DNA of 64,000 nt from an uncultured Bacilli bacterium (GCA_949841325.1 CATKZK010000001.1:4733-68732), one strand, 5' to 3'. Counted from the first letter of the stretch, positions 5,312 to 52,649 are shown. Program-made: numbers and translations. Notes: generated by a model from the sequence alone, not told the origin.

Positions 5312-5416
5312 TGTGTTTTTTTTTGAGAAAATCTGTAAATGTTACTTCTTTTAAGACAAACGTTGATACTTTTTCTGTTAATATTCATAGATTATACTAG
5401 AAAGGAAAGTGAAAAA

Positions 5417-25003: not shown

Positions 25004-27067
25004 TTAAAAATTAGTTTTTAAATGCAAATGTTTTTCTTTTCTATGTTCATTTATCATATTCAGTGTCTTTTGTTTAAAGTGCAATACAGTTTCATAATCA
25101 GTAGCGAAAGAGATAAAGGTACACAATGTCTTTTCAGCTCTTTCAAAATCATCAATGTTTAAATAATGCGTAATCACTAATGAAATATTGTCTTGTGTGT
25201 GTAGTGGGTCAGTATATAAAACGACATAGCACAATATATCGATTTCTTGTTTGTCAAAGGCATAACCCATCGTAGATAGTTTTTGAAATTTTTCAAAATA
25301 GGAATGACATACATCTTCACTAGGGACCTTCCCCCAATACATCTTAAGAAATCTTTTTTTCTCTTCTAAAAAGTCTTTTTTTCCTTTTTCCAATTCTAAG
25401 TTTTGTTTATTTTGGATAGCTTCTTGGGCAGATTTGCGTAAGTTTTCTAATTCATTAATACTTAAATTTCTATGTTGACAAATGCCTACAATTCGTTTTT
25501 TTACGTATGCAATAGATGAATTAATCTTGTTAGCAATCTGATGATTAGAAAGCCCATGACGAGTGATGTAATTCCAAATCTCTTTATCTTCTTTAAATTT
25601 TTTTTGTCTGCTTAATTTTTTTAATCTTTTCTTTTGATATTTAAAAATTTCTTCCTTTGTTATTTGCTTATCAGCAATTAAACGAGCTTTACTTCGACGA
25701 ACACGACTTTCAGTTAACATTCCTGATGCATCTGATGCGATTATTTCCTTAACAGTTAATCCATCTTTTAAAAGAGGTAATATACGAGCGTCAATCGCTG
25801 TATAACTATCGTGATTGGCATCGACCACTTGTTTAACTGACTCGTCATCAATTAAGCCTTCATATTTTAAAGCTTGAATAATTCTATAAATGCTTGTCTC
25901 AGAAATTTCATCTATATCATCTTTATTTATCGTTCGATAAATTTCGCATGTCCCCATTCCAAGATTATATAACTCCTTAGTTGTTTCCCTATAATATAAA
26001 CGTCTATTGTTAAGTGCTTCATTGATAATCTTTTGAGAAATGTAGTGATTTAGTTTTAAATATGTAATTTTTTCCATCAAATCTTTTTGAAGAAGTTTTG
26101 TTTTCTTACTAATATAGGTATATGAATATCCTGCTTTAAGATAGTTAATAATGTGTACTTCCGCTTCCGTTAATTTATCATCAATCTCTTTTATTTCTAT
26201 ATCTTTTTTCTTTCTTTTTCTTTCATTCTTAGACGTTTTTGTATATTTGCGCTTTATACCCGCGATCGCGTTAATACTTATGTCGAAAATGGCGGAAATC
26301 ACTTTATAAGGGACATTAAATTCGATTAAGGCTAATATCTTTTCATTACGTAAACGAATCTCTTCCGATTTATCATCAAAATCTCTTTTTATCCGTTCAA
26401 TACTAGAAACAGTTATATTAAATATTGCTCCAATAATGTCATAAGGAATATTGAACTCAACTAAAGCGAGAATAATTTCATCTCTCCTTTTTAACTCCTC
26501 TTGTAATTCTAATTTGCCATTTATTATTTCACTTCTTTGTATTTCATTATTTTCGATTAATATTTCAAAATATCGAGCAATTGTAGTCATAGGAATTCCT
26601 GTAATGTTACTAATTTCAGTCTTTGTTTTTTTATCTTTAACTAGCTTTTTAATTATGTTCAATTTTTCGATTTTCTCTTGCTCTTCTAAAGGAATAACGT
26701 TTAGATTGGCAAGTCTATCTTGTATTCTTTCGATCGAGGCATTTATATCCGCATACTGATAATGATAAACCTTATTAAGATAGCTCCTGCTTTTTCCCGT
26801 TGATAAGGCTTGATAGGTACGTTCATCAAGAATTAAATCTACATCTCTTTGTGCTTTCTTTTTTGCATCATCAATCTCTTTTTGTGTAATTTTACCCATT
26901 TGAATTAATTTCTTTTTTATATTACAACAATACTGACGTGATCGACCTAAATGTTCACTCATTTTTGTATAAGACCAGCCAGTTCTCAACATGTTTTCTA
27001 TTTCCTTATAATCTTCTTGTTTTTCCTCTTTGCTAAATCTAACATTCGACATTTTGCATCCCCTCAA
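25004..27067 (-). CDS. large protein built of at least six repeated helix-turn-helix-like modules (putative transcription regulator)
   Basis: recurring HTH-like segments (ILALVEFNIPYDIIGAIFNITVSSIERIKRDF / ILALIEFNVPYKVISAIFDISINAIAGIKRKY, plus four more); 687 aa. Confidence 0.55.
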   Translation of the reverse strand: MRGCKMSNVRFSKEEKQEDYKEIENMLRTGWSYTKMSEHLGRSRQYCCNIKKKLIQMGKITQKEIDDAKKKAQRDVDLILDERTYQALSTGKSRSYLNKVYHYQYADINASIERIQDRLANLNVIPLEEQEKIEKLNIIKKLVKDKKTKTEISNITGIPMTTIARYFEILIENNEIQRSEIINGKLELQEELKRRDEIILALVEFNIPYDIIGAIFNITVSSIERIKRDFDDKSEEIRLRNEKILALIEFNVPYKVISAIFDISINAIAGIKRKYTKTSKNERKRKKKDIEIKEIDDKLTEAEVHIINYLKAGYSYTYISKKTKLLQKDLMEKITYLKLNHYISQKIINEALNNRRLYYRETTKELYNLGMGTCEIYRTINKDDIDEISETSIYRIIQALKYEGLIDDESVKQVVDANHDSYTAIDARILPLLKDGLTVKEIIASDASGMLTESRVRRSKARLIADKQITKEEIFKYQKKRLKKLSRQKKFKEDKEIWNYITRHGLSNHQIANKINSSIAYVKKRIVGICQHRNLSINELENLRKSAQEAIQNKQNLELEKGKKDFLEEKKRFLKMYWGKVPSEDVCHSYFEKFQKLSTMGYAFDKQEIDILCYVVLYTDPLHTQDNISLVITHYLNIDDFERAEKTLCTFISFATDYETVLHFKQKTLNMINEHRKEKHLHLKTNF

Positions 27068-28696: not shown

Positions 28697-28928
28697 AGTC
28701 ATGACTAATACTTATATTTTAGATAAGAATAACTTTGATAATTAAGAAATAAAATATTCTGCTACATGCTTCATGCTACATAATAAGGGTAATACTATCC
28801 TTATTATGGCGAAGACTTTAGTGGCTACGCCACTAGTCTCGCTCATGTATATTTTTAAATACTACGCAATCTCATAGTATTTTTTATTTGAACTTATAAA
28901 ATTAATAATACAAACTAATTTTTCTAAA

Positions 28929-34401: not shown

Positions 34402-35409
34402 TTAATTATCCAATTTTTTCAATTGATCAGAAAATAAGATAAGAAGAGCAATTCCTACGAAGATGAGTCCATAACCACCTATTAATAAATAGTCTTTCCG
34501 CTTTGTTTCCTTTTTCTTTTCATTGGAAGTTTTTTCTATTTCTTCATTTTTACGCGTGATGGTTAAATTGTACTGTTTCATTGTTCCATCTTCTGCTGAA
34601 ACATTCACTTGTATTGTATTTACTCCTATTGCCAATTTCTGTTCTTCTAACGTTTCTGTCTTTGCCTTTATATCTTCTGTTTTTGCAGTAATTGTAATGC
34701 TTTCTGTTTCATATGGCACTTCTGCTGTATAGTCAAATATTTCTTTTTTAAGCTCTACTTTTTTATCATTGATAAGAAGTTCACTTAAGTAAGCATTATT
34801 GGACATCTTTATTGATGGTGTTGTCGAAGTTATAGTTGTTTTTGTTGTAGAAAGAGTCGTTGTTGTCATCTTTTGGGTTGTAGTTGTTTTAGGAATATTA
34901 TCTAAATAAATATAACCGATTAAATCACCTGGAGATATCCAATAACTCGCATTTTTTTCACAGGCAATGGATTTAGCATATTTACTGCAAGCTCGACTAG
35001 ATTCTTCATCAACTGCAAGATCATTGCACTCTTTCCACTTCTCATCGCTTTCATCAATACATGATGAATCAGAATCCCATACATAAATTTTATTTCCACT
35101 TACACGTTCGACATAACCAACATGTCCATACTTATCCCATTCCCAAACGACAATAGATTTTGCTTTGGGTGTTTTTCCTACCTCAAATCCGGCTTTCTTT
35201 GCTGAGGCATACCAAGTTCTTGCATTTCCCCATCCTGGAAGCGAAACTCCTGCTTTATCATGTGCCTGTTGCCAAGCATACCAAGTACAATTTGTTCCCC
35301 ACTGTGTTGCCTTCTTATAGGGATTCTTATCTGCATATACAGTGGAAATATTTACAATGCTTATAATTAATATTAAGGCAATAAAAAGTAAAAAGCTTTT
35401 CTTTTTCAA
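34402..35409 (-). CDS. secreted CHAP-domain peptidoglycan hydrolase with a cadherin-like beta-sandwich domain and a C-terminal membrane anchor
   Basis: signal peptide; CHAP motifs (CTWYAWQQ...; HVGYVERV); Thr-rich linker; C-terminal TM. Confidence 0.7.
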   Translation of the reverse strand: MKKKSFLLFIALILIISIVNISTVYADKNPYKKATQWGTNCTWYAWQQAHDKAGVSLPGWGNARTWYASAKKAGFEVGKTPKAKSIVVWEWDKYGHVGYVERVSGNKIYVWDSDSSCIDESDEKWKECNDLAVDEESSRACSKYAKSIACEKNASYWISPGDLIGYIYLDNIPKTTTTQKMTTTTLSTTKTTITSTTPSIKMSNNAYLSELLINDKKVELKKEIFDYTAEVPYETESITITAKTEDIKAKTETLEEQKLAIGVNTIQVNVSAEDGTMKQYNLTITRKNEEIEKTSNEKKKETKRKDYLLIGGYGLIFVGIALLILFSDQLKKLDN

Positions 35410-35546
35410 AATAGACTCACTCCTCTAAAAACTATATTGATATCTTTAAATAGCTTGTAAACTAAAACAAGTATAGCATTATTTGTTTTCTACGGCAATG
35501 GGAAAACGTATTCTTTTAAAGCAAAAAAAGCAAGTGATTTTAACTA

Positions 35547-36500
35547 CTATCGCCCGCTTTTTTCACTTTGTACATACAACAACTGTTTTGGAATATCCCT
35601 CTCAGCTTCTTCTTTAATTTCCACTTTTTCTCCAAAGAGGACATCAAAAATATGATGGTAATCTTCATTTGTTAGTTTCACGATTCCATTATTTCTTTTA
35701 TAAATAATGATACTGATTAAAACTTTTGCAATATAGGAATCAAATGGATGAATGGTAAAATCAAAGACATCTTTAATCCCTTTAATATTATAGCCACCAG
35801 CATAATTTAAATGAGATGATAAATAAGAGCTAAATACTTGTTTCTCTGAGGATAACGGCAATGTCATATATTCGCTATAGCCTTCATTATAATAATTGAT
35901 AAGACCCTCTCTATCCCAAAAGCGATGAGTTGGACATTCGATTCCTAATGTATTTTTACTGTTTTTATCTGCTTCTATACAAAGTAAGTTTTTTCCTTTC
36001 GCATATAAATCAATCTTTGTATTTACTTTATCGGAATTGATATACTTTCCATTAAACTCTTTAAATGGAGCTAGCGTAAATGCATTTCCTACTAAAAAAT
36101 ATAGATGTGCTACATTACTAAAAGTTTGACCTCCATATACGGGCATTCCCTTTAATTCAGTAGCGCCTACTGTTAAGATTTCAAATTCTTGATCTGCTCT
36201 AAATTGATATAGATGCTTGACTATTTCTGCAAGTTCTTTTACATTTAATTCTCCATCTTGTTGTAGTGGGAAAGACCCTCTTCTAGAGACATAAATCTGT
36301 AATGCATCCATATTTGGAAATCTTTCATATAAAACAAATTCTTTATTCCTTTTTCTATTATAGAAATTTTCATAGGCATCGGCAATATATCCATAAATAT
36401 CATTTTGTAATGTATTTACTTTTTTTAGAAAATGATTTGCTTCTTTTCTTTTTTCTTCTAAAGACTGTATTTCTTTTTGTAATGTTTTTATTTTATCCAT
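35547..36500 (-). CDS. hypothetical protein (N-terminal coiled coil)
   Basis: 317-aa ORF, no recognised motif. Confidence 0.45.
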   Translation of the reverse strand: MDKIKTLQKEIQSLEEKRKEANHFLKKVNTLQNDIYGYIADAYENFYNRKRNKEFVLYERFPNMDALQIYVSRRGSFPLQQDGELNVKELAEIVKHLYQFRADQEFEILTVGATELKGMPVYGGQTFSNVAHLYFLVGNAFTLAPFKEFNGKYINSDKVNTKIDLYAKGKNLLCIEADKNSKNTLGIECPTHRFWDREGLINYYNEGYSEYMTLPLSSEKQVFSSYLSSHLNYAGGYNIKGIKDVFDFTIHPFDSYIAKVLISIIIYKRNNGIVKLTNEDYHHIFDVLFGEKVEIKEEAERDIPKQLLYVQSEKSGR

Positions 36501-36524
36501 AGTATATCCTCTTTTCCGATTCGT

Positions 36525-38045
36525 TTAATTGTGATAACTCTTTATTTTATCGTCAGTACTCTGCGTTTTTTGTCTCTTCTCGATCGTTTCTAACGTATTG
36601 ATGATGTACTGCTGTTTATAAGGCGTTGCATTTATATAGTCTTCTTTTACTTTTTGTTCTCCGCCATAACGATCGATCGTTTCAGTAGAATATACTTTTA
36701 AACTTTCTGGTAGCTTGTAATCATTTTGGTAAAAGGAGAATAACGCCTCTTCATCATCTATTTTTACGATTTCTTCATTTTCAAGTTCATTTGATGAAGC
36801 AAGTGCCTCTAATGCTTTTTTCATATGTTCTTTTGTCCACTTCATCACATAAAGTGCATCTGTTGGTCCTAGTTTACATACTAAATCTTTAAGTGTTTGT
36901 TGAATCATTTGATGTAATTCTCTTAAAATTGGTTTCATTTTTTGTTTAAAAGATGGAGTAAAATATTGCCAACTAAAGTAAAGTGCGACTGTGTGAATCC
37001 ATAAATCAATACAGTCATTTTCTTTTGCTAAATAAAGACGTGTATTAAATGGTTTGCTTTTCATTTCGTGATAAAAACGATTTGGTATTTTAAATAATTC
37101 ATTTGGCAAAATGTGATTATATAATTCTTTAGGAAAGTTTCCTTTTGCATTGAGATGCCATCCTACATACATTCTCTTAGCACGGTTTATTTTTTCAATC
37201 AAGTCTAAACTTTGAAAAGAGAGGGGGAGTGTAATAATAACACCATTTTTATTAAAAGAACCAAATTTGATTTCATTTTCTTTAGAAATATTTGATGCAA
37301 TCAAAACACTAGAACCAATCAGTAATATATCGTTTGTCATAAATCCTACTGTTCTTTCTTTTGGATAGGGGCTTACTAAAGCATCTTGTTTTGTAAGATA
37401 CATCGTTTTCTTCTTTGGAATGCATTCAATAAGCTTAATAGTAGCAGATCCATTAAAGAGCATTTGTTCATGAATGGTTAAATCAACACCATTGTTGATT
37501 TCTGTAATTGTGTAATATCCTTCCTGAAAACCTTTTATATAGAGAAGATATTGCTTAAATAAATTACAAGGCAATTCGTGGAGTTTTTCTTTTTCTAATT
37601 TTTTTAATTCTTCGTATGCAGATTCAATTGATTTGTGTTGAACAAATAAAGGAAGCGCACGAATGTCATTGCCAAATATACTATTTTTTGTATATTCAAG
37701 TTCAGAAATATCATGTAGAGAAATTTTACCTGTACGGTCAATCGCTTGATAAAGACAAGGTTCATTTTCATTTTTATAGTAAACTGTTAAAATTTGAAAG
37801 TCTCTTTCTTTGTCTTTTTTATTCTTTTCAGTTACTAGAAGTTTAGACGTATCAAAATTGCCTTTCATATATTCCAGTGGATATTGCCTAGGATTTTTAT
37901 AATTGCAAACATTAATATTCTGACATTCTTTTAGAATGTGACTATTCACAAGCTGACTATGCACAGTCTCCTTTTTATGTTCAGTATCTACCATATCCAC
38001 ATAATACTCTCTATTTTTCTTATATATACTTAATAGTAAAATCAT
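36525..38045 (-). CDS. hypothetical protein
   Basis: 506-aa ORF, no recognised motif. Confidence 0.45.
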   Translation of the reverse strand: MILLLSIYKKNREYYVDMVDTEHKKETVHSQLVNSHILKECQNINVCNYKNPRQYPLEYMKGNFDTSKLLVTEKNKKDKERDFQILTVYYKNENEPCLYQAIDRTGKISLHDISELEYTKNSIFGNDIRALPLFVQHKSIESAYEELKKLEKEKLHELPCNLFKQYLLYIKGFQEGYYTITEINNGVDLTIHEQMLFNGSATIKLIECIPKKKTMYLTKQDALVSPYPKERTVGFMTNDILLIGSSVLIASNISKENEIKFGSFNKNGVIITLPLSFQSLDLIEKINRAKRMYVGWHLNAKGNFPKELYNHILPNELFKIPNRFYHEMKSKPFNTRLYLAKENDCIDLWIHTVALYFSWQYFTPSFKQKMKPILRELHQMIQQTLKDLVCKLGPTDALYVMKWTKEHMKKALEALASSNELENEEIVKIDDEEALFSFYQNDYKLPESLKVYSTETIDRYGGEQKVKEDYINATPYKQQYIINTLETIEKRQKTQSTDDKIKSYHN

Positions 38046-38109
38046 GGCCTCACACTCCTAGATGTATATTTATTATATCACATTCAAAAGTATTTAAAAT
38101 ACAAAAATA

Positions 38110-38676
38110 TTATTTCTTTTTTGCAACAAAGTCAAAGTAATGCCACTTTTTATTTTCTAAGTCTTTTATATACTCTTGTTCTTTCCATTTTATAATTTCA
38201 TAATCTTTTAATAACTCTAAAACTTCTTCTTTGGTAAAGGTAGAAACCTCTTTATTTTCTTTATGAAAACATCTATCTCCAAAAAGATTTGCGGCGAAAA
38301 TTCCTCCTGAAGGAAGAACCTCATAGATAGTATTCCATAAATCATTAAACTTAGAAGGAGAACAAAATGGCTATGCAAAAGTTGTTAAGATGCAATCTGT
38401 TTTTGGTAGCTTTATTTCCTCAAACTTTCCTTTTTGCATTACTAATGCCTTTTTTTCTTCTTCTGTTATTCTATCTAAAATATATTCTTCTTTTAAAAAA
38501 GCATTTAATCGCGATTACTTTTTTTCCTTTTTTAGCATATAAACCGTATTATTACCGCTTCCGCAACCTAAGTCAATAATCGATTGAAAAGACAATTTAT
38601 TTGCTAGAAAAACGGCTAAATAATTGGGCTTTGTTCGATAGGTACTTTCTTGATATTCCTCCCATTTCAACTTCAT
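38110..38676 (-). pseudogene. class I SAM-dependent methyltransferase disrupted by two in-frame stop codons
   Basis: minus-strand translation gives MKLKWEEYQESTYRTKPNYLAVFLANKLSFQSIIDLGCGSGNNTVYMLKKEKK*SRLN...ILTTFA*PFCSPSKFNDLWNTIYEVLPSGGIFAANLFG...; motif I and a post-I-like segment in one frame, interrupted by a TAA and a TAG. Confidence 0.5.
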
Positions 38677-38711
38677 TACCTCATAAACTATTCTATATTA
38701 TTCATAATAAA

Positions 38712-39644
38712 TTACTTAACTTGATAAGATTTCATCGGATCTTTTATTAATTCTCTTTGATAACCAAGTACTCTAGTCCCTTCATGACGAACTTGACTAT
38801 CTTCATATATTAAAAAATTTTTATAATCTTTAGCTGTATAATTTGTTTCATATCGTAAGTCTTTATCTTCATAGTATAAAGCATTACGATAACTTAAAGC
38901 AAATCCATCTAAGTAAGCTTTTAGCACATCGTCAGTTAATTCAATCCACCCATATTTATTAATAACTGTAGCTACTTGAGTGCGCAAATGATCTAAAGTC
39001 ATATAGATACCTGCAAGTGGTGGGAAAACATACGGAACTCCCATTCTTTCCAATCGCGTATCATTTTCTATAAAAAATTGTTTATAAGATACATCGACTA
39101 AATAATAAGTATTCCCATGTTCAATAATATTGAAATAATGGTAGCCATTTCCATCAAATAGAGTTGCCTCTTCATCAAATCCAGGATCTATTCTTACTAC
39201 ATGACATTTTAAATCACATCGTTTAGCAGCTTCCTTAACGTGATTAGAAGCAACCTCACACATATTCATTACATCATATTTATCATAGTGTTTGCGAAGA
39301 TCTAGATTTCCAATTAATCTTTTCCTCGTATAGTAAACGACATAATCCAAATAGTCTAAAACGGAATAAGTGGTTCTATTTTTACTATAGTTAACGTTAT
39401 TATTAACGCCTCGTAAATCTCTAAAAAAACCTTTAGTATCACAAATATAGTCAGTTCGCAAGTTTATCAGTTCAACATTTAATTTTCTTATATACTGACG
39501 ATACTCATCATTCATTTTTATTCCATCATAATAATATGGTGCTACTATTTTTATTTTCCTTAGTATTTTATCTAAATTCTCATATCGTTTATAAGGTTTA
39601 ACTAATACAGCTTTTGCTTCCTTTATAATTTCTTCCACAGTCAT
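38712..39644 (-). CDS. transglutaminase-like / papain-fold cysteine protease domain protein
   Basis: Cys-His-Asp arrangement (MCEVASNHVKEAAKRCDLKCHVV ... GYHYFNIIEH ... YYLVDVS) matching the transglutaminase core pattern. Confidence 0.45.
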   Translation of the reverse strand: MTVEEIIKEAKAVLVKPYKRYENLDKILRKIKIVAPYYYDGIKMNDEYRQYIRKLNVELINLRTDYICDTKGFFRDLRGVNNNVNYSKNRTTYSVLDYLDYVVYYTRKRLIGNLDLRKHYDKYDVMNMCEVASNHVKEAAKRCDLKCHVVRIDPGFDEEATLFDGNGYHYFNIIEHGNTYYLVDVSYKQFFIENDTRLERMGVPYVFPPLAGIYMTLDHLRTQVATVINKYGWIELTDDVLKAYLDGFALSYRNALYYEDKDLRYETNYTAKDYKNFLIYEDSQVRHEGTRVLGYQRELIKDPMKSYQVK

Positions 39645-39862
39645 TTCTTCCTTTTTTTATAGAGTATTATATATTATTTTGAGGAAGTTCGCAAACTTTA
39701 ATAGTTAAAGATGTTATTTCCAAAGTTAGGAGAAATAAAAGGCATATAAATAAAAAGGTTAAAATCTAAAAAATGCTTTATAATTGAATTGTAACTAAAC
39801 AATGGAAGCAGGCTTTAACCCTATGAAATGCATATTAGTTTTCTAATCGTCTAATCTACTCA

Positions 39863-41581
39863 TTATTTTATAGTTATTGTCCCTTCATCCCCGTCAAGCA
39901 CTACTTCTAATTCATCTTGAAGAGAAAGTTTTTTTACCACTTCACCACCAACACCAGTAATACATGGTATTCCCAATTCTCTAGATACTATTCCTGCGTG
40001 ACACAAGAAACCGCCACTTGCAGTGATTACGCCTTTTGCTTTCATCATATGAGGAATCCAATCAGGATCTGTAACCCAAGCAAGTAATATATTTCCCGTT
40101 TTAAATTTTTCTGTTGGAGAATTTAAAAATTGTATTTTACCTTCCACTTTTCCACTAGAACATGCAAGTCCTTTGATCGTATGATTAGAAACGGATTTTG
40201 TTTTACGTAATTGTTTTTTTACCTTTACAGTTACTGGTCTAAATTGAAGCATAACAAGTTTATCATTTAATACCATCCATTCAAAATCGGAAATCGTTTT
40301 TAATTTCTTTTGCATGTTCGTCAGTTGTTTTCCTACTGAATTTCCATTAATTGTTAAACAATTATTTAATTCATTCATAGAATTTTTAAAAAATTCATTT
40401 TTAGGAATGACCTTCCCTGATACTAGTTTTTCTCCATTTCCTTCTGTATATTCTAATAAACCACTGGTTAAGTTATTTCCCATCCAAACGCCTGAAAGTT
40501 GTGGTTCAATAAATTCTTGTATAATGACTGCCATATGTGGTTTTTCCAAATTGTTTTTCTTAATATAACTTTTTAAACGAGCATTTTTTACTGAATCTTT
40601 TACTTTTTTTATATTTTCAATTAGCATTTTTCTTTCTACATTTAAATATGAATCAAACATTCCAGCAAAGGAATAATTTTCCCCATCTTCAATATCGGCA
40701 GAACTTCGAACCGAAAAAAATCTTATTTCTTGAGGGATATTTGCATCTATTTCTTCATAGGTAATATTTTTACCGATAGGAATGATGACAGTCCAAGGAA
40801 TTGTGGCGCCTATGGTTTTTAATTTTGCGAGACCATAACTTTTTCCACCAAACAAACTTAAAGCCTCTTTTTTCATATCTAAATTTACTAATAAACTTAT
40901 GATTTCGATATCCACAATTTTCTTTTTACTTATTCTTTCTAAAACAATTTTAGTCAATATGGCATTTTCTAAATCTTCCTTTTCTGAAAATTCGGCATAA
41001 CATTGTTTTAAATAGGAAAAAGAAAATTTTTCCAATGTATTATAATAAAAATGATGTTGTTTGTCTTGCCATTCTTTAAAAAGAATATATTTTTTTAAAC
41101 ATTCCACATTTTCAATGGATAATAGATCATCCGTTTTTTTAGTTGCTTGTATTTTTTGAATATCATCGGATAAATAAATTTGATCAACAAGTGCAATTGT
41201 ATTTAAATAATTACTACCATACATTTTCTGTAGTTCTCTTAATGTCTTATCGTTTAATTTACAATGTTCATCAAAAGCTTCTAGCAGATAGAAATAGGAT
41301 AGACTTAATAATACATGATTTCCAATAGAACGAGTTGGCAAAGAATTCTTTTGAGCCAATTTTAAATGCATGACTGTTTTTTCATGAAGGTTTGTAAAAA
41401 TCGTATTTATTGTTTCTGCTTTTATTTTTTTATTTAACTGTTGAATTAATTCTAATACAGTAGCATTAAATTCGGTATCGACAAAACATTGTAATAGTAT
41501 TCTCTTTTGTAAGTATTCATCTGTAATGAACTTAAATATTTCGTTTGCTGTTGTTAAAATTTCATTTTTATTATTTTTCAT
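39863..41581 (-). CDS. PEP-utilising enzyme family phosphotransferase (unknown N-domain + ATP-grasp-like nucleotide-binding domain + phospho-His swivel domain)
   Basis: LFGGKSYGLAKL resembles the PpsA/PPDK N-terminal nucleotide-binding motif; C-terminal GGFLCHAGIVSRELGIPCITGV is the PEP-utilisers mobile-domain signature. Confidence 0.6.
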   Translation of the reverse strand: MKNNKNEILTTANEIFKFITDEYLQKRILLQCFVDTEFNATVLELIQQLNKKIKAETINTIFTNLHEKTVMHLKLAQKNSLPTRSIGNHVLLSLSYFYLLEAFDEHCKLNDKTLRELQKMYGSNYLNTIALVDQIYLSDDIQKIQATKKTDDLLSIENVECLKKYILFKEWQDKQHHFYYNTLEKFSFSYLKQCYAEFSEKEDLENAILTKIVLERISKKKIVDIEIISLLVNLDMKKEALSLFGGKSYGLAKLKTIGATIPWTVIIPIGKNITYEEIDANIPQEIRFFSVRSSADIEDGENYSFAGMFDSYLNVERKMLIENIKKVKDSVKNARLKSYIKKNNLEKPHMAVIIQEFIEPQLSGVWMGNNLTSGLLEYTEGNGEKLVSGKVIPKNEFFKNSMNELNNCLTINGNSVGKQLTNMQKKLKTISDFEWMVLNDKLVMLQFRPVTVKVKKQLRKTKSVSNHTIKGLACSSGKVEGKIQFLNSPTEKFKTGNILLAWVTDPDWIPHMMKAKGVITASGGFLCHAGIVSRELGIPCITGVGGEVVKKLSLQDELEVVLDGDEGTITIK

Positions 41582-41828
41582 ATCTTCTTTTCCTTTTCTT
41601 ATTTCTTCCTAATGCTATTATAACATATATGTTCATATTGTTTCTCTTGAATGTGTGGATAGTATCCCAAAGAGTTTTCTTTTTTAATTATCAAATGACT
41701 TACTCGTAATTATTTTTAGATTATATTTAAAATAATTAAAAATTTATACCCAAAAGAAAAAGGTAAATTTTTAAAACTTACCTTTTCTAATAAAGGAATA
41801 TATTTAATATAACCTTCATTCAATTAAT

Positions 41829-42965
41829 TTACTTTATTATTTTCTTTTCTAAATGAATGTGTTTAATTTTTTCATCTGTTTTTATTATACTCGGATTAAG
41901 TCCAAAGAACCTGTTATTATTGTTTCTAGTTGTTTTTCCAGGAATAATGATTTCTTTATCGATTAACGGTTCTAGTACTTCTTGATATATCTTTTGAGGA
42001 TTCCTTCTAGGATTTAAATGATTATAAAAAGTTGTGAAATCATAGTATGTAAGAATACCTTGCATTGATAAGATATAGTATAATGTTTGTAAATTTGCAT
42101 CGGATAATTCAAATCTAGCACTATCAGATATTATTTCCATCGCGTATTCTTTTTCAAGTTCAATTAATACATTTCTTAACATGTAATTTAGGAAATAAGT
42201 GACATTATGATATTTTCTACCATCTCTAATGACAAGATAATATTTGCTTTTGTCCAGTTGAATAGCACGATTAAATATTATATATGGGTAGGCTTGATTT
42301 TTTAGCAAGTACCACATAGCTGTCGTTCTTGCTGCTCGTCCATTTAGATCATAATATGGATGAAGGTATGCAAAATAAAAATGGGCAACTTGTGAACGAA
42401 TAAAATAATCCGTCATGCAAGTAATATTATTTGAACTATTTAAGTATTCTATTAAAATATTCATTTTCTCGTCAAGTTCACTTGCTTCAACTCCTAAGTC
42501 TGGTTCTTTGGTAATTAAACTTGAATAGAAAATGTACACGGGATTTTTTCGATAATATTCTCCCATATTAGATTTATCCTCTTCACTTAACAATTGATCT
42601 GAGAGTATACTATATAATTCTTTTAAAGTGTCTTTATTTATCTCTTTATTCTGTAGGATAAATTTATATCCATAATATAAATTTAAAATCCTGCGTTGTT
42701 GTTCTTCATCTAACTCGGCTGTAGGATGTTTGATGATTCGTTTTACTTGAGTAATATCATCTAAATATCCTTCTATTGTATTATTTGATTTTATTTCTTG
42801 ACCAAACAATACTCTTTTTGAAAAATCTCTATTATTCATATAATTGATATCTTCTAAAAATTTTTCTAATTCTTCTTTATATTTATTTAAGTCATCTGCT
42901 ATTAAATAAAGTCTACTCGATTCTAGTGGTAATGGTAAATAACTTCTACTCTTTATTACTTGCAT
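41829..42965 (-). CDS. Fic/Doc family protein with a variant Fic motif
   Basis: HPYYDLNGRAARTTAMWYLL matches HPFx[DE]GNGRxxR except Gly->Leu at motif position 6. Confidence 0.6.
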   Translation of the reverse strand: MQVIKSRSYLPLPLESSRLYLIADDLNKYKEELEKFLEDINYMNNRDFSKRVLFGQEIKSNNTIEGYLDDITQVKRIIKHPTAELDEEQQRRILNLYYGYKFILQNKEINKDTLKELYSILSDQLLSEEDKSNMGEYYRKNPVYIFYSSLITKEPDLGVEASELDEKMNILIEYLNSSNNITCMTDYFIRSQVAHFYFAYLHPYYDLNGRAARTTAMWYLLKNQAYPYIIFNRAIQLDKSKYYLVIRDGRKYHNVTYFLNYMLRNVLIELEKEYAMEIISDSARFELSDANLQTLYYILSMQGILTYYDFTTFYNHLNPRRNPQKIYQEVLEPLIDKEIIIPGKTTRNNNNRFFGLNPSIIKTDEKIKHIHLEKKIIK

Positions 42966-43026
42966 TCTGAATCCCCCTTAAATTGGGGTATATGATACCA
43001 TGAATTCCCTTATTTTTCAAATTGTT

Positions 43027-43284
43027 CTAAAAATATATTAGTATTAGTTTTTTACCCTTTTTAGTAACATCTACTTTATGTGGCTCTATAAAACTAATAT
43101 TAGTACCTGCTATATAAAGAATTCTTCCTTGCCTAAACTCACACGTAGCATTATTAAAACTACACGTAGTTCTTATTCTTTTTTCTAGTTCTTCTGATTT
43201 TATAAATTTTTCTCTAAAAAATCTCCATTTTTTACACCATTTTTTAGTAAAAACAAAAACCGTGGATTTTCCTTTTATTTCCAC
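43027..43284 (-). CDS. small basic hypothetical protein
   Basis: 85-aa ORF directly upstream of the Fic gene. Confidence 0.3.
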   Translation of the reverse strand: MEIKGKSTVFVFTKKWCKKWRFFREKFIKSEELEKRIRTTCSFNNATCEFRQGRILYIAGTNISFIEPHKVDVTKKGKKLILIYF

Positions 43285-43330
43285 GGCTTTCTCTATGTTT
43301 TAACTCCATTTTTTGAAGCGTATTTGCACT

Positions 43331-43404
43331 TGGCAGAGGATGAGAGAATCGAACTCCCAGCAAAAGTTTTGGAGACTCCTATGTTACCATTACACCAATC
43401 CTCT
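43331..43404 (-). tRNA. trnW: tRNA-Trp (anticodon CCA)
   Basis: reverse complement AGAGGATTGGTGTAATGGTAACATAGGAGTCTCCAAAACTTTTGCTGGGAGTTCGATTCTCTCATCCTCTGCCA: 7-bp acceptor stem, GTTCGATTC T-loop, CUCCAAA anticodon loop, encoded 3'-CCA. Confidence 0.7.
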
Positions 43405-47221: not shown

Positions 47222-48319
47222 ATGGAATATTACAAGATGGATGAAGTGGAACTGCGAATAAGACGTATAAAGAATTTAAAAAGCATTCATGCCTTCTTTC
47301 TTCAAAATCAAGAAAAATTTGTTCTTTCTGTAACAACAGAAACAGATAATATCATTGTTGATAATCATCATCCTCATTTTATGCTTTTTCTCACCTCTCT
47401 TGCCAATGCTTATTTTGATGAATGTGATACACGTAGAATTTTAGTGCTTAATCCTGATGTTATTAGTCTCTTAAAAGAAAATAAACAAAATCAAATAACA
47501 AGATCATCTTTTATACCTGTTGAAAAAATAGAGTATCAAAGTAATGAACTTCGTTTTTTCACTACCTTTATTTATGAAGCTTTAGCAGTTGTCTTTGGAT
47601 GTAATGGAGTAGAAATTACTCGTTTTAGCCCGATGAAAGGTATGCGTACTTTCTTTCATATGTTTGCAGAAACAAAGGGCAATACGTATATCTTACCTAT
47701 AAAGTATAGTAAAAAAAGTGAAAATAAAATTGTCCTTGAGATTGGCAATGTTGTAGGAACCTCTCTTCATTTGGAAATTCGTTATTCTCCTTCAGGTGTA
47801 CGTATTTATTTCCATGGAGGATCTATTCCTTTAGTAGGTACCATTATATATGAACTAGACCAGGAACCTACTCATGAAGTAGAAGTGATGTATGAAAATC
47901 AAATGAGTTTTTATAATCGTGAGAGTCTAGTAGGCGAAGAAATGAATGGGAAAATGGCTTACTCGCTTTCTCCAGAATTTACGATACTTTATCAGGAAGA
48001 AGAAAGTACAAAGGATACTGAATATCGATTGGAAACAGAAGAATTTAAAAAGTGTGTTCATTTAAAAGAAAAGTGGCGTTTCATTGGAGAAATAAAGTGT
48101 CCTGTCTACACCGATTACGAAGGCTATGAAGAATATAAAATAGGTAATAATTTTTCTCTTGTTCAAAAATATAATATCGATAATCAATATAGTATTGACG
48201 ATATTCATTTGATCTTAAAAGAGGGGGAAAAAGAGATTATTCCTCCTAAAGGCATGACAGAAGAGCTAAAGAGTTTAGATGAACGAGTTATTCGTTTACG
48301 ATTAGAAAGGAAAGAGTAA
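47222..48319 (+). CDS. hypothetical protein
   Basis: 365-aa ORF; translationally coupled to the next gene (3-nt gap). Confidence 0.45.
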   Translation: MEYYKMDEVELRIRRIKNLKSIHAFFLQNQEKFVLSVTTETDNIIVDNHHPHFMLFLTSLANAYFDECDTRRILVLNPDVISLLKENKQNQITRSSFIPVEKIEYQSNELRFFTTFIYEALAVVFGCNGVEITRFSPMKGMRTFFHMFAETKGNTYILPIKYSKKSENKIVLEIGNVVGTSLHLEIRYSPSGVRIYFHGGSIPLVGTIIYELDQEPTHEVEVMYENQMSFYNRESLVGEEMNGKMAYSLSPEFTILYQEEESTKDTEYRLETEEFKKCVHLKEKWRFIGEIKCPVYTDYEGYEEYKIGNNFSLVQKYNIDNQYSIDDIHLILKEGEKEIIPPKGMTEELKSLDERVIRLRLERKE

Positions 48320-48321
48320 CA

Positions 48322-50454
48322 GTGGCAAATAAATTTAAAATTCCATTTCTTAATAAAAAAGAAGAGAGTGAAGAAAAGCAAACATTTAGCAATGCTTTTG
48401 AATCTCTATACGCACTAGCAGAAACTAAAAGAGCAACATCCATTATGGAACATATGAATAGAATAAAAGGGCATTCTGAAAATTGTTATTTTGAAAGTGA
48501 AGAAGCTTACTTAGAATTTGTAGAAACTGTTTTAAATAATCCTGTTTTGATAACAAAAGATTTTAAAACTCTTTACGAAGAAGGAGAAGGTATTTATCGC
48601 AGTTTAAAAGAACATAAGAAACTATTTAAGCACTTTTATCAAACCAAAGGACTTTATGAAAATGGTGCTGTTTTAAAAGAATGCCTTTCATTATTTGAAG
48701 ATCCTACCAATTATATGGCAATTATGGAAGCCCTTCTCTACAAAGGGTATCCTTTTAAAGATCGAAAGACTTTAATCGAGTTATTTACCAATATAGCTAT
48801 CTATACAGTAGGCGATAATGATTACTGTGCCGCCTTACTTTACTTTGCTAACCATGCGGAGATGAAGGGAGACTATCAAAAGACAGCAGATGAAATTATC
48901 GGAATTGCAAAGAAAAAGATTGGTTTATATGATGAATTAGATGAAAAAACACTTGCTAAATGGCAAACAATCATCAAAGAGGCTGCTAAACCAATTGTTG
49001 ATTTAGAAAAATCCCGCAAAGAAATTGCCTCTTTAATGCAAGATCTTGCAAGCTATAAAACGGAAGCACAAATTGTTGATAAAACAATTAATGAAAAATT
49101 AAATCAATTTGAAGATTATGTTGATCATTCTATTTTAAAACATCAAGAAGAAATGAAAGCTGCTTATGTCGAACTTGTAGCTAAACTTCGTAATGTTTCG
49201 TTCACTTTAGAGGGAGAACTTAGTCGTTCGGCGGAAAGAAAAGCTTTAGATATTGCCAATCGAACACTTGAGAAAATGCAAAATGAGGCGCATGAACTTT
49301 CCTCTGTTTCAACTAATGTAAAATCTTCTATGCAAGATCTTGAGAAATTAAAAGCAGAACTGGAAACAAAATTAGAAGAAGGTTTAAAATCTATTGAAAA
49401 GTCCTTGTTAGGTTCAGAAAATGTTGATTTTAGTAAAATAAAAGAGCTTATTTCAACGAATTCTAATGAAGGTAAAACAACGGAAAAAATTATTCTTCCA
49501 AGTGCGCCTATCACTTTCCAAGGAGAGATATTTGCCAAAGAAGAAACGGAAGTGCCAAAAGTTTTGCCTTGCTTTGATCCAACAATCCCTTTTAAAGAAA
49601 GATACCAACAATTGATGAAGATAAAGAAAAAGCAGCAAGAAAAAGGCATTATTTATAATGAACGTTTAGAAGATTGCCTTTATGCCATTCTAGCCAATAG
49701 AACCATTTATCTTTATGGACCGACAGGAGCTGGGAAATCGACTTTAATTAAACAACTTGAAGATTTCTTTCCTGTTCCGTTTATTCCTGTTGATTATATC
49801 GATGATAAGTTTGAAGTGAGCGGAGGAAATACGGCTAATGGAGGATATTCTCGTTCAAAAATATATGATTGTTATCGTCTAGGGTATATTGCTTATTATG
49901 ATGAAATAGATAACGGTTCCGCTAAATCTACGATTAAACTTCATCCTTTTATGGATGGATTAAGAGATTCGTATTCATTTCCTGTTGTTGGAAAAGTAAA
50001 TCGTCACCCAAATTTTCGCGTTATTGTTGCGGGTAACACTTCTGGTATGGGAGCAACAAGCGCCTATAATACGCGTGCCAAATTGGATGAAGGTACTATC
50101 CGTCGAGTTGAATATATTCCCATTGATTACGATACGAAATATGAAAAATTCATTTTAAAAGAATATCCAGAATGGTTTGCTTTTGTCATGTTATATCGCA
50201 AAGCAGTTAAGAACTATTGGATCGAACAAGATGATCAAATTCGTGGGCAAATATCAACAGCACATGTATCACATTTAGCCTTTGATTTAAGTCAAAATAT
50301 TCGCAGTGAAGAGAAAATTTTAGAAAGAATGTTTGTTGAGCCAAAATCTGATGATTATCTAAATTTCATTACTAAGTATATGGAAAATCACAATGATGAA
50401 AAAGCAAAAAAATTAGTAAAAGAGTTTGCCTCTTTAGTAGAGAAGCGATCATGA
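48322..50454 (+). CDS. coiled-coil protein with C-terminal AAA_5 / MoxR-type ATPase domain
   Basis: Walker A YLYGPTGAGKSTL, Walker B AYYDEID, sensor FRVIVAGNTSG; ~450-aa helical/coiled-coil N-terminal region. Confidence 0.65.
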   Translation: MANKFKIPFLNKKEESEEKQTFSNAFESLYALAETKRATSIMEHMNRIKGHSENCYFESEEAYLEFVETVLNNPVLITKDFKTLYEEGEGIYRSLKEHKKLFKHFYQTKGLYENGAVLKECLSLFEDPTNYMAIMEALLYKGYPFKDRKTLIELFTNIAIYTVGDNDYCAALLYFANHAEMKGDYQKTADEIIGIAKKKIGLYDELDEKTLAKWQTIIKEAAKPIVDLEKSRKEIASLMQDLASYKTEAQIVDKTINEKLNQFEDYVDHSILKHQEEMKAAYVELVAKLRNVSFTLEGELSRSAERKALDIANRTLEKMQNEAHELSSVSTNVKSSMQDLEKLKAELETKLEEGLKSIEKSLLGSENVDFSKIKELISTNSNEGKTTEKIILPSAPITFQGEIFAKEETEVPKVLPCFDPTIPFKERYQQLMKIKKKQQEKGIIYNERLEDCLYAILANRTIYLYGPTGAGKSTLIKQLEDFFPVPFIPVDYIDDKFEVSGGNTANGGYSRSKIYDCYRLGYIAYYDEIDNGSAKSTIKLHPFMDGLRDSYSFPVVGKVNRHPNFRVIVAGNTSGMGATSAYNTRAKLDEGTIRRVEYIPIDYDTKYEKFILKEYPEWFAFVMLYRKAVKNYWIEQDDQIRGQISTAHVSHLAFDLSQNIRSEEKILERMFVEPKSDDYLNFITKYMENHNDEKAKKLVKEFASLVEKRS

Positions 50455-51431
50455 GAGATTATCTAAACATTTATGAAGATAAAGAAGGCTATCGCCATTT
50501 TGACTATTATTTTCCTTCACTATCTTCCTTTGTAAAATATACAAGAGAAGCCCCAATTAATGAAAAGATTTTTACGCGTTTTAAAAGAGCTTCAGAGAGT
50601 ACTTTGCTTGCTTATGGGGCTGACACCTTAGAAGAAACTTTTGATCATCTAATCAGTGGATATCACAATCAATATCCTGAATATCGGAGGATTAGCCAAA
50701 TAAAAAACATCTCTTTTTATCGTCCTATAGAAGAGATAAATGAAACAACGGTTCTAAGTTATGATGGTGGATATGTTGATATAAATGCTTATTTAGCAGG
50801 AGAGGCAAAATGTATGCGTAAGACAGTTTATCAAGAAACAAGGAGCTTTATCAATTTTTATATTCAATTGCTTTTTTCGTCCGATGTAACAGAAAAGGAA
50901 AATATTCATCGCGGAATTATTGCTTTAGAAATTATTAGAGCATTAGAACAATCGGGAGTTTCTGTAAATATTATAGGAATTGCAGGATTGGTTACTCAAA
51001 ATGATAATTACAGAGAAGAAATGATGCTTAAGATTAATTTAAAATCGTCTAATATGCCATTTAATGAGTCAAAATGTATTGGACCTTTAACTCGTATTGA
51101 ATTTCCAAGGAGAGCTATAATGCGACTTGTCGAGACAACTCCATTTGACTTTAGTTTAGCTGACGATTTGAGATTAACATATGGAAGAGCGAAAGAATTT
51201 GATGATTTAAAACCAATTCTTCCTTTGAAACAAGGAGATATCTATTTAGGAAATCCTCGTTATCTAGGAATAAGACCAGGATATACAATTGAGAAAAAAG
51301 AGCGTTTTAAAAAGTCAAGTGAAGCCAAGCGATATATAATTCGTGGAGAAGACATCTATAAAGATTTTGAAACTACTTTAGAATGCCTCCAATTGGAGAA
51401 TGTAATAAAGTTAAAAAAAAGATTGAAATAA
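50451..51431 (+). CDS. hypothetical protein
   Basis: 326-aa ORF overlapping the previous stop by 4 nt. Confidence 0.45.
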   Translation: MRDYLNIYEDKEGYRHFDYYFPSLSSFVKYTREAPINEKIFTRFKRASESTLLAYGADTLEETFDHLISGYHNQYPEYRRISQIKNISFYRPIEEINETTVLSYDGGYVDINAYLAGEAKCMRKTVYQETRSFINFYIQLLFSSDVTEKENIHRGIIALEIIRALEQSGVSVNIIGIAGLVTQNDNYREEMMLKINLKSSNMPFNESKCIGPLTRIEFPRRAIMRLVETTPFDFSLADDLRLTYGRAKEFDDLKPILPLKQGDIYLGNPRYLGIRPGYTIEKKERFKKSSEAKRYIIRGEDIYKDFETTLECLQLENVIKLKKRLK

Positions 51432-51476
51432 AGAAAAAATAAGGTATAATAAATTCTTAAGAAAGAGGGCCTATAC

Positions 51477-52649
51477 ATGACAGATATTGAAATAAAGCCA
51501 CCAGTATTACAAAAACAAGAAACAGAAGTTACGATAACTGCTCCTGTATTTAGTGAAGAAGATGAAAAGGAAATCACAGAATTAGCAAGTCTTATTGATT
51601 TTAATGACAGTACATCTGTTTTAGAATATGGTGTTGATTTTATGCAAACTTTTGGAAAATTTTCTAATGAGGCATTAAAGAAACATCGTTCAAAAGACTT
51701 GGGAGATATTGAAAAGGAACTTTTAGAGTTTTCAACTTCATTAGTCGTAAATGAAGAGGAAGACTTATCGAAAAATATCATTATTCGTCTCTTTCAAAAG
51801 GGGAAACAAAAAGGGAAAGAGTCGGCTACAAAAGTTGCATTGTCACAAATTTCTATAGAAAAGCTTCTAAATCAAGCAAGCGAAAAATTCTTAGATAAAA
51901 AAGAATGGCTCCTTTCTAGTATTAGTGGGATTGATACTTTTTATGAGTATAATCTTCAATATCACAATATGATAGAAAAATATACCGAAGCAGCGAAAAG
52001 AGAGTTAGAAAAAGGAAGAAGAGAATTACCAACTATGGTTGAGAATGCAAAAATATCTGGTGACCAAATGGAAGTGCAGAGAGTGCGAGACTTTGCTGAG
52101 AGAATGAACGATTTAGAACAAAAAGTGATTAACTTTAATTCATTAAAAGTACTTTCGGAAACACTTTCATATGAGTTACGAATTGAGCAAAAGGCATTTA
52201 AAGATGTGGCTGGGGGTATTAACGAAATTATTACAACTAGTATTCCTCATTGGAAATTATATCTTCAAATGCAACTTGTGGCAGAAGAAGGAAAAGAAGC
52301 AGCAAGAATTTTAAAAGGTGCTCAAGAGTTGACGCAAACACTTGCTAAAAAGAATGCTGACACGATTCACGATTTATATATTGATGCAGTTGATATGAAA
52401 GGAAAGCCAACTTTTGAACATGAGACAGTAGAATATGTTATAGAGCGATTACAAGATGCTATTCAATATGAAATTGAAAAGACTAGAATTCGATTGGCAG
52501 ACTTAAGAGAAGGAGAGTCAAGATTAGAAACTAAGTATGAAGAATTTCAAAATGTATTGATAAACTATTCAGATGAAATGGGAAAAACGACAATTGACAG
52601 TGCTTTAGATGGCGAAAAAAAATATAAATTACCAACAAAAAAAGTGTAA
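51477..52649 (+). CDS. TelA-like (toxic anion resistance / YaaN family) coiled-coil protein
   Basis: size (390 aa), N-terminal region (DFNDSTSVLEYGVDFMQTFGKFSNEAL) and all-helical character resemble the TelA/KlaA family; assignment from memory, not verified. Confidence 0.45.
   Translation: MTDIEIKPPVLQKQETEVTITAPVFSEEDEKEITELASLIDFNDSTSVLEYGVDFMQTFGKFSNEALKKHRSKDLGDIEKELLEFSTSLVVNEEEDLSKNIIIRLFQKGKQKGKESATKVALSQISIEKLLNQASEKFLDKKEWLLSSISGIDTFYEYNLQYHNMIEKYTEAAKRELEKGRRELPTMVENAKISGDQMEVQRVRDFAERMNDLEQKVINFNSLKVLSETLSYELRIEQKAFKDVAGGINEIITTSIPHWKLYLQMQLVAEEGKEAARILKGAQELTQTLAKKNADTIHDLYIDAVDMKGKPTFEHETVEYVIERLQDAIQYEIEKTRIRLADLREGESRLETKYEEFQNVLINYSDEMGKTTIDSALDGEKKYKLPTKKV

Follow-up and report, generated by a model that had tools for sequence, protein, structure and literature searches.

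The DNA analysed here, referred to as the window, comprises 64,000 nucleotides (nt) of an uncultured Bacilli bacterium (GCA_949841325.1 CATKZK010000001.1:4733-68732), a low-GC Firmicute that is represented by metagenome assemblies and metagenome-assembled genomes (MAGs) only. The window has a GC content of ~31%, a positive GC skew and the majority of its genes on the plus strand, and the orientation flips to the minus strand over positions 34402-43404. In this block, six substantial open reading frames (ORFs) lie downstream of a tRNA-Trp gene, between 34402 and 42965. They encode, in the direction of transcription, a Fic protein, a 572-amino-acid (aa) phosphotransferase, a 310-aa protein with a Cys-His-Asp triad, a 506-aa and a 317-aa protein to which no match assigns a function, and a CHAP hydrolase, with the remnant of a TehB-like methyltransferase gene between the 310-aa and the 506-aa genes (Table 1). 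We consider it likely that the block is made up of accessory genes that are independent of one another and stand alone, as a mosaic within a long variable region and not as one acquired element.

An initial annotation, made from the sequence alone, had described the block as an accessory island abutting the tRNA. The tRNA gene, on which ARAGORN and Rfam agree, was recovered on the minus strand together with the six ORFs and the methyltransferase remnant, whereas the 85-aa basic protein that headed the gene list is doubtful. The content of the block is also, as had been claimed, not of the housekeeping type. Pfam identified the CHAP, Fic and PPDK_N/PEP-utilizers domains, and the other three ORFs have no Pfam match. 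The block belongs to a variable stretch of ~29 kb which runs from tuf to rplI-dnaB, where the core genes restart at ~54 kb. In their composition, the block genes do not stand out: the GC content of the seven genes is 0.27-0.33 against a window mean of 0.316 (standard deviation, sd, 0.035), and that at third codon positions (GC3) is 0.18-0.235 against 0.207 (sd 0.036). Together with the synonymous-codon likelihood, these values are within ~1.5 sd of the window genes, so that the comparison of GC and codon usage which the annotation had proposed reveals no deviation.

Comparison with relatives

A scan of a genome collection, anchored on the flanking ABC permease, yielded the one sister-species locus on which the synteny test is based, L013 (contig CAZWKF010000016.1, from a MAG). 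This MAG is deposited as uncultured Muribaculaceae (Bacteroidota), yet L013 is 72-79% identical in DNA to the window of a low-GC Firmicute and is therefore probably mis-binned. Three segments of L013 align with the window by blastn (Table 1), covering YitT and AAA, the stretch from the three ABC genes through the CHAP, 317-aa and 506-aa genes to the methyltransferase remnant, and finally Fic with 60 nt upstream of it. At the protein level, the identity to L013 is 78% for YitT, 91% for AAA, 74-86% for the three ABC genes, 58% for CHAP, 63% for the 317-aa protein, 60% for the 506-aa protein and 79% for Fic. Window positions 38688-41825 and everything past 43024 have no L013 alignment, and tblastn found no match in L013 for the 310-aa, 572-aa and 85-aa products.

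The first of these differences is a cassette that holds the 572-aa and 310-aa genes and fills precisely the interval from the Fic stop codon to the ribosome-binding site of the methyltransferase gene, with its borders 3 nt past the former and ~11 nt upstream of the methyltransferase ATG. In this position, L013 contains two unrelated genes over 1.7 kb, encoding 256 aa and 227 aa (a membrane protein), and reciprocal tblastn between the cassette genes of the window and those of L013 detected no similarity. The block is thus not present or absent as one unit; the internal 3.1-kb cassette differs, and CHAP, 317, 506, the dead methyltransferase and Fic are kept. The second difference begins ~60 nt upstream of the Fic start, where the synteny breaks and the window continues with a tRNA-Trp transcription unit of its own. 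L013 continues past Fic with ORFs of 231 and 149 aa, an anti-sigma/ECF-sigma pair and a CYTH protein.

In the more distant relative L017, tuf-YitT-AAA is common to both and is followed by entirely different genes, and the same-species metagenome contigs shown all have the identical arrangement. The variability among relatives asserted in the initial annotation is borne out by the L013 cassette and by the divergence of L017 after AAA. The alignment against related genomes that it had recommended gave a divided picture, with most of the gene order kept in L013 without an insertion signature and differences in the cassette and in the flank past 43024. Judged by these alignments, most of the variable stretch predates the split of the two species.

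Table 1. Features of the minus-strand block and segments of the window aligned to the sister-species locus L013.
Feature	Window position	Strand	Basis
tRNA-Trp (anticodon CCA)	43331-43404	-	ARAGORN; Rfam tRNA, 56.8 bits
Promoter-like site of tRNA-Trp	43451-43423	-	Promoter scan
Intrinsic terminator of tRNA-Trp	43256-43291	-	Sequence reading, fold energy
85-aa ORF, probably no gene	43027-43284	-	Start inside terminator stem
Promoter-like site ahead of Fic	43020-42992	-	Promoter scan
Fic protein, 378 aa	41829-42965	-	Pfam Fic, 30.6 bits (cut-off 24)
Species-specific cassette (572-aa + 310-aa genes), 3.1 kb	38688-41825	-	blastn of L013 against window
ATP-grasp + swivel-His phosphotransferase, 572 aa	39863-41581	-	Pfam PPDK_N (275-403), PEP-utilizers (493-567)
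Promoter-like site ahead of 310-aa gene	39694-39666	-	Promoter scan
310-aa Cys-His-Asp protein	38712-39644	-	No Pfam match
TehB-like S-adenosylmethionine (SAM) methyltransferase pseudogene	~38113-38676	-	Conceptual translation, TehB E = 3e-5
506-aa protein, function not assigned by any match	36525-38045	-	No Pfam match
317-aa protein, function not assigned by any match	35547-36500	-	No Pfam match
CHAP hydrolase, 335 aa	34402-35409	-	Pfam CHAP E = 2e-18, Cadherin-like E = 2e-9
YitT, AAA (L013 1967-3888)	29116-31056		blastn, 78% nucleotide identity
Three ABC genes, CHAP, 317, 506, methyltransferase remnant (L013 4648-12275)	31087-38687		blastn, 72% nucleotide identity
Fic + 60 nt upstream (L013 13957-15155)	41826-43024		blastn, 79% nucleotide identity

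The tRNA-Trp junction

The tRNA-Trp gene points toward the block and is a stand-alone gene with its own promoter-like site; all promoter-like sites listed in Table 1 are consensus matches from a promoter scan. Directly downstream of it, a terminator reads AAAGCCGTGGA-13 nt-TCCACGGTTTT, in which a U-rich tail comes after the stem AAAGCCGUGGA/UCCACGGUUUU and the hairpin has a fold energy of -20.6 kcal/mol (z = -3.6). The 13-nt loop is the reason why a pattern scan overlooked it. The GTG start of the 85-aa ORF sits within the 5' arm of this stem. The ORF has no match in Pfam or PADLOC, its product has no tblastn match in L013, it lies wholly outside the L013 DNA homology, which stops at 43024, and it is without the inhibitory motif [S/T]xxxE[G/N]. 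Because its start lies in the terminator stem, no family matches it and it is not part of the sequence in common with the sister species, the ORF is probably spurious, and the small partner proposed for Fic therefore falls away.

No second copy of the last 26 nt of tRNA-Trp (up to three mismatches) or of its last 15 nt (up to two mismatches) occurs anywhere in the 64 kb, and a general repeat search found no repeats at the borders of the block; the attL/attR direct repeat that the initial annotation had suggested looking for was not found in this form. Its remark that no integrase is visible agrees with our Pfam and NCBIfam scans, which detected neither an integrase nor a recombinase among the ORFs tested between 25 and 54 kb. 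Nor was a tRNA found in L013, whose contig reaches 2.7 kb past Fic. There is no sign that the block beside tRNA-Trp is a mobile island inserted at the tRNA. Since the L013 backbone adjoins the same ABC genes and has a flank past Fic that lacks the tRNA, the tRNA-Trp junction is a separate breakpoint, with the junction and the block having separate histories.

The encoded proteins

The Fic protein scores above the Pfam threshold and carries, as initially annotated, a variant Fic motif, HPYYDLNGRAAR at residues 202-213, in which the catalytic residue H202 is present. Its orthologue in L013 (13960-15096), which is 79% identical, has the motif HPYYDINGRTAR. The loop reads HPYYD-L-NGR here and HPYYD-I-NGR in L013 as opposed to the canonical D-G-N-G-R, so the canonical motif HxFx(D/E)GNGRxxR is lost by the replacement of Gly by Leu, and a Leu or Ile in place of Gly in the anion-hole loop is conserved in both species. 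The bulky residue in this phosphate-binding loop may alter the substrate or the chemistry. When the structures of FICD and SoFic are aligned, the inhibitory I64-E65-G66 on the N-terminal helix falls on the IEGN of FICD. A Fic domain, the catalytic His and an inhibitory Glu in cis are the marks of class II, and the protein is a SoFic-like, self-inhibited member of this class. It shares with SoFic (3EQX/3ZCN) and human FICD the length of ~375 aa, the layout, the Fic core with the catalytic His and the N-terminal IEG helix, and it matches the PADLOC model of SoFic (E = 2.8e-23). It differs from both in its active-site loop, as does the L013 protein, and falls far below the cut-off of the NCBIfam equivalog for SoFic adenylyltransferase, NF046030 (34.9 against 550 bits).

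SoFic is an abortive-infection AMPylase whose antitoxin AS1 is encoded by a 47-aa gene downstream of its Fic gene (PMC12249575). A comparable antitoxin downstream of the block Fic was rejected, as the spacer offers just a 35-aa ORF with a TTG start in non-conserved DNA. The arrangement of Fic with a small upstream protein, which had been likened to toxin/antitoxin pairs, is not supported either: there is no conserved small neighbour, the 85-aa ORF overlaps the terminator, is absent from L013 and is without the inhibitory motif, and Fic has its IEG in cis. Held off by its own inhibitory Glu, the enzyme would transfer AMP or a related phospho-group to a protein, and it may act in phage defence like SoFic.

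The 572-aa protein had been annotated as a phosphoenolpyruvate (PEP)-utilising phosphotransferase with a swivelling His. The PPDK_N and PEP-utilizers matches support the phosphotransferase, but there is no PEP/pyruvate-binding domain, and nothing follows the His domain. Its sequence matches in the PDB are PEP synthase and RPH entries, and it has 717 related clusters, the best of which are full-length at ~570 aa. In an alignment of 35 family members, GGK245-247, RSS292-294, E298-D299, Q446/R448 and GG..C527-H528..R534-E535 are invariant, and the stretches in which they lie correspond, in the alignments to PEP synthase and RPH structures, to the ATP-grasp and the phospho-His carrier domain. The first ~235 residues make up a domain specific to the family, in which E101, E105, D133, Y165, K169, W171-Q-D and H176 do not vary; W171-Q-D and H176 belong to the invariant motif W171-Q-D-x-x-H176.

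The order of an ATP-grasp followed by a C-terminal phospho-His carrier domain is that of the PEP synthase/pyruvate phosphate dikinase superfamily, which includes RPH and PigC/RedH. Like RPH and PigC/RedH, the 572-aa protein has no TIM barrel for PEP or pyruvate, which implies a transfer from ATP via His~P to an acceptor; unlike them, it is ~300 aa shorter, lacks the RIF-binding or PigC substrate domains and has the distinct ~235-aa N-terminal domain with WQDxxH, E101, E105 and D133. With a partial PPDK_N match and no TIM barrel, it is not a PEP synthase or pyruvate phosphate dikinase (NCBIfam, 166 against 598 bits), and it is not an RPH (104 bits against a cut-off of 999), although the His domain and part of the ATP-grasp align to 5FBS/5HV1; overall, its NCBIfam scores are all 5- to 13-fold under the cut-offs. 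The most economical reading of these residues is that ATP would phosphorylate His528, which would pass the phosphate to a small molecule or protein bound by the N-terminal domain.

The nearest homologues of the 572-aa protein, at 58-68% identity, come from L004, L010 and L020, where they stand alone in three unrelated settings. A phage or plasmid origin was rejected, as the matches there are generic PpsA matches over the C-terminal 55%. Homologues with 40-43% identity occur in four loci (L006 4087-17913, L007, L008 4050-18590 and L009) within a conserved gene cluster that comprises a TehB-like methyltransferase, an aminotransferase, three radical-SAM/SPASM enzymes, the phosphotransferase, YcaO and Peptidase_S51. 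The element carrying this cluster has a large serine recombinase at its end and splits a penicillin-binding-protein gene, namely Peptidase_S11 in L006 and L007 and PBP_dimer/Transpeptidase/PASTA in L008 and L009. It looks like a skin-type intervening element with a biosynthetic cluster resembling those for peptides that are made by the ribosome and modified after translation. A link of the window locus to this cluster was rejected, because its methyltransferase, aminotransferase, YcaO and S51 peptidase had no tblastn match in the window; the TehB-like methyltransferase near the 572-aa protein in both settings is a coincidence.

For the 310-aa protein, the initial annotation had proposed a transglutaminase-fold cysteine protease, of which the fold is plausible and the term "protease" is not upheld. 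The family is small, with 37 clusters in 5.8 billion proteins, and among 36 aligned sequences C129 and D184 are invariant and H169 is conserved in at least 90%. In the AlphaFold2 (AF2) model (pLDDT 95.6, pTM 0.93), C129 opens the helix 129-142, and H169 and D184 are on the hairpin 169-176/179-183, which gives a Cys-His-Asp triad on the canonical scaffold of a helix and a beta-hairpin. The Foldseek matches are weak (best E = 0.057), and most of them are transglutaminases, arylamine N-acetyltransferases (NAT), vasohibins, SseI, PMT and factor XIII. The protein thus resembles the transglutaminase-like/papain-like superfamily (bacterial transglutaminases, NAT, vasohibins and the SseI/PMT deamidases), from which all of its best structural neighbours come, in the order of the triad, with Cys at the helix N-terminus followed by His and Asp on the beta-hairpin. 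It differs from this superfamily in that it has no sequence-profile match in Pfam or the PDB, that the Foldseek E-values are not significant, and that its family alone has large helical extensions at both the N- and the C-terminus. A transglutaminase/papain-like fold is probable on the basis of the model, and the protein would be a cytoplasmic Cys-His-Asp enzyme that may act as a protease, deamidase, amidase or acyltransferase.

The nearest homologues of the 310-aa protein (65-79% identity) are found in a CHAP/SLT/VanZ locus in L018 and L021, one version of which has a serine recombinase, and beside a RhuM-Fic gene in L017. When the neighbours were clustered over 48 loci of the family, no common partner emerged except a VanZ-like protein in six of them, and many family members lie among housekeeping genes. 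A link between the 310-aa family and Fic, as suggested by L017, L021 and the window, was rejected, with a Fic motif within 10 kb in one of 46 metagenome loci. The two versions of the CHAP/SLT/310-aa-homologue/VanZ locus differ in a segment where L018 (15009-16529) has the genes of a large serine recombinase, of an HTH protein and of a 345-aa protein, and L021 those of a 479-aa Fic protein and of an ABC ATPase; this is another small variable slot beside a member of this family.

The methyltransferase remnant can be read in one frame from 38676 to 38113 as a 187-codon TehB-like protein with the motif I IIDLGCGSG. It retains the DLGCGSG of a class I SAM methyltransferase in a frame that is interrupted twice, by a TAA and by a TAG stop. 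A four-way DNA alignment places the first stop between the loss of 1 nt in a poly-A run and the gain of 1 nt a few codons later, a compensated -1/+1 pair of frameshifts, and the pseudogene status given in the initial annotation thus holds. The copy in another strain of the same species (L003) does not have the poly-A loss and is simply frameshifted, and the copy in L013, whose halves were compared by tblastn, has an 8-nt deletion of its own. Because this lesion differs from the stops and frameshifts of the window, the gene is dead in both lineages by independent lesions.

The 506-aa family consists of 14 clusters only, and its AF2 model (pLDDT 83, pTM 0.81) has no match in the PDB or BFVD at E <= 0.001. 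Outside L013, homologues are found after an FkbH/ACP/MBOAT/Cthe_2159 cluster (L015 and L016) and, in L080, between RhuM and a short-chain dehydrogenase; in none of these three other contexts is a 317-aa gene alongside. In the window, the 317-aa gene lies 24 nt downstream of the 506-aa gene, and its orthologue in L013 is in the same place. A first metagenome scan with the 317-aa protein gave nothing, and its family comprises 78 representatives among 1.84 billion proteins; one member of the family matches DUF3965. The profile searches that had been recommended for the three unknowns (310, 317 and 506 aa) found nothing meaningful among PDB sequences, with no match at all for the 506-aa protein. 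A phage or plasmid origin of these orphan genes was rejected, as scans of viral contigs with all three, and of INPHARED and PLSDB with the 310-aa protein, were empty.

The CHAP hydrolase is confirmed by its Pfam CHAP and Cadherin-like domains and has partial matches to PcsB-type NCBIfam models. The protein consists of a signal peptide, the CHAP domain, a Thr-rich linker, the Cadherin-like beta-sandwich and a C-terminal transmembrane helix, the signal peptide and the helix being read from the sequence. It is predicted to be a secreted, membrane-anchored peptidoglycan hydrolase of the cell surface with a function separate from that of its neighbours. Among the proteins of the block, the SoFic-like Fic with its conserved non-canonical loop, the large uncharacterised family of short swivel-His phosphotransferases, the 310-aa family as a putative new branch of the transglutaminase/papain-like superfamily, and the three rare uncharacterised families (310, 317 and 506 aa), one with a confident model without a fold match, could merit biochemical follow-up.

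Origin of the block and its surroundings

The interpretation of the block as a mosaic of independent genes is supported by the DNA collinearity with L013, the single-copy tRNA end, the normal composition, and the occurrence of each gene alone elsewhere. The backbone, which extends from the ABC transporter over CHAP, 317, 506 and the dead methyltransferase and restarts at Fic, is inherited vertically in place. The cassette difference would have come about through homologous recombination within the conserved DNA on either side of it, or through a replacement or a deletion, rather than by site-specific integration. The region resembles the chromosomal variable regions known as hotspots or "islets" in its conserved flanks, alternating cargo, borders at gene edges, and accessory content with orphan genes and a pseudogene but no mobility gene. 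It differs from them in lying beside a tRNA that is not used as an attachment site, and its cargo is not recognisably made up of defence or mobile-element genes. Several points weigh against this interpretation. The synteny test has only one sister locus, from a MAG, whose right flank ends 2.7 kb past Fic; the tRNA-Trp may lie farther out in L013, beyond the contig end, and the change of the cassette may be a gain here or a loss in L013. The seven genes share one orientation, opposite to that of the prevailing strand, and the spacers between them are short, so that some co-transcription is possible, most likely of the 506- and 317-aa genes. Moreover, the 310-aa homologues of three close loci (L017, L021 and the window) are within 3 kb of a Fic gene, which might reflect a lineage-restricted 310-aa/Fic link, and the functions of the individual proteins are predictions from their domains only.

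The alternatives differ in the features of the block they emphasise. The tRNA-Trp abuts the block and is directed into it, the block contains accessory genes including a pseudogene, and the region varies between relatives; in its position on the 3' side of a tRNA and in its cargo, the block is similar to tRNA-targeted integrative islands (tyrosine-integrase islands and integrative conjugative elements). Nevertheless, the old or remnant island of the initial annotation, a single element integrated at the 3' end of tRNA-Trp that has since lost its integrase and repeats, is very improbable. No tRNA-derived attL/attR repeat with up to three mismatches and no integrase were found in the scans described above, the terminator is intact immediately after tRNA-Trp, the composition gives no signal, and the backbone in L013 is beside the same ABC genes with a different flank past Fic that is without a tRNA over 2.7 kb of contig. 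The case shows that a tRNA beside a run of odd genes is insufficient for calling an integrated island, and its significance for genome biology in general is small, the region being an ordinary genomic feature. Another alternative concerns the 572-aa and 310-aa enzymes, which the initial annotation had combined in a modification or effector module, possibly with Fic. Both have intact catalytic residues, and their genes are adjacent, co-oriented and jointly present or absent in the comparison with L013, but each is preceded by a long spacer of its own (218 and 247 nt), with a promoter-like site before the 310-aa gene. The two genes occur together in this species alone and in no other locus examined, their nearest homologues are never together, the 48 loci of the 310-aa family show no consistent neighbour, and Fic motifs near this family are as rare as stated above, so that we give such a module next to no credence.

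Cassette swapping between conserved flanks, as is seen at 38688-41825 against L013, is typical of defence hotspots. The SoFic-like Fic and the 310-, 572-, 506- and 317-aa proteins could then be anti-phage genes that accumulate and swap in a variable slot, which would also fit the PADLOC match of Fic to an abortive-infection AMPylase, the RhuM or RhuM-Fic genes adjoining homologues in L017 and L080, and, in the vicinity, a P-loop protein with a weak LeoBC match, TelA and Abi_2. We regard this as unlikely, since Fic is the sole gene of the block with a PADLOC match, departs from the canonical GNG, is far below the NCBIfam cut-off for SoFic and has no conserved AS1-like small gene. In addition, the 310-, 317- and 506-aa families have no viral matches, searches of phage and plasmid records with the 310-aa protein gave no match either, and many members of its family are located amid housekeeping genes. 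A more specific version is likewise rather improbable. In it, the 572-aa protein represents a widespread uncharacterised family of compact phosphotransferases, which has hundreds of clusters from Firmicutes of the gut and rumen, and a new acceptor-binding N-terminal domain would direct the phosphorylation; the slot between Fic and the dead methyltransferase would be a small hotspot at which new conflict or defence genes are exchanged, that of the 310-aa enzyme among them.

Further features of the window lie on both sides of the block. To its right, a tightly packed plus-strand set at 47222-52649 encodes an unknown of 365 aa, a P-loop protein of 710 aa that weakly matches the PADLOC LeoBC model (E = 4e-10), a DUF7192 protein with a start/stop overlap, and TelA; this set could be a candidate defence or stress module. 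The Abi_2 protein, which is abortive-infection-like, is encoded at 59907-60839 (Pfam E = 6e-41) among genes that are otherwise of the housekeeping type, such as UDG and an HtrA-like protease.

On the left, a 687-aa protein with repeated helix-turn-helix modules (HTH_23, HTH_28, Trp_repressor and TrmB) is encoded on the minus strand directly after tuf (25004-27067), and its gene is followed by a stretch of 23% GC at 27-29 kb. In L017, YitT directly follows tuf, and the region of the 687-aa gene is another relative-specific insertion. An Rfam ssNA-helicase RNA (RF03070; 47.3 bits, gathering score 41.5) lies on the minus strand at 28760-28808, in a very AT-rich spacer after an MFS transporter gene. 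Farther out, at 5339-6340, the window encodes a collagen-like protein that has long triplet repeats (GxT/GPQ) and is rich in Cys at its N- and C-terminus. The GC content of its gene is 0.46 compared with a window mean of 0.32, and the protein resembles BclA-type filaments of the exosporium or surface; in L004, the homologue of the 572-aa protein also has a collagen-like gene beside it.

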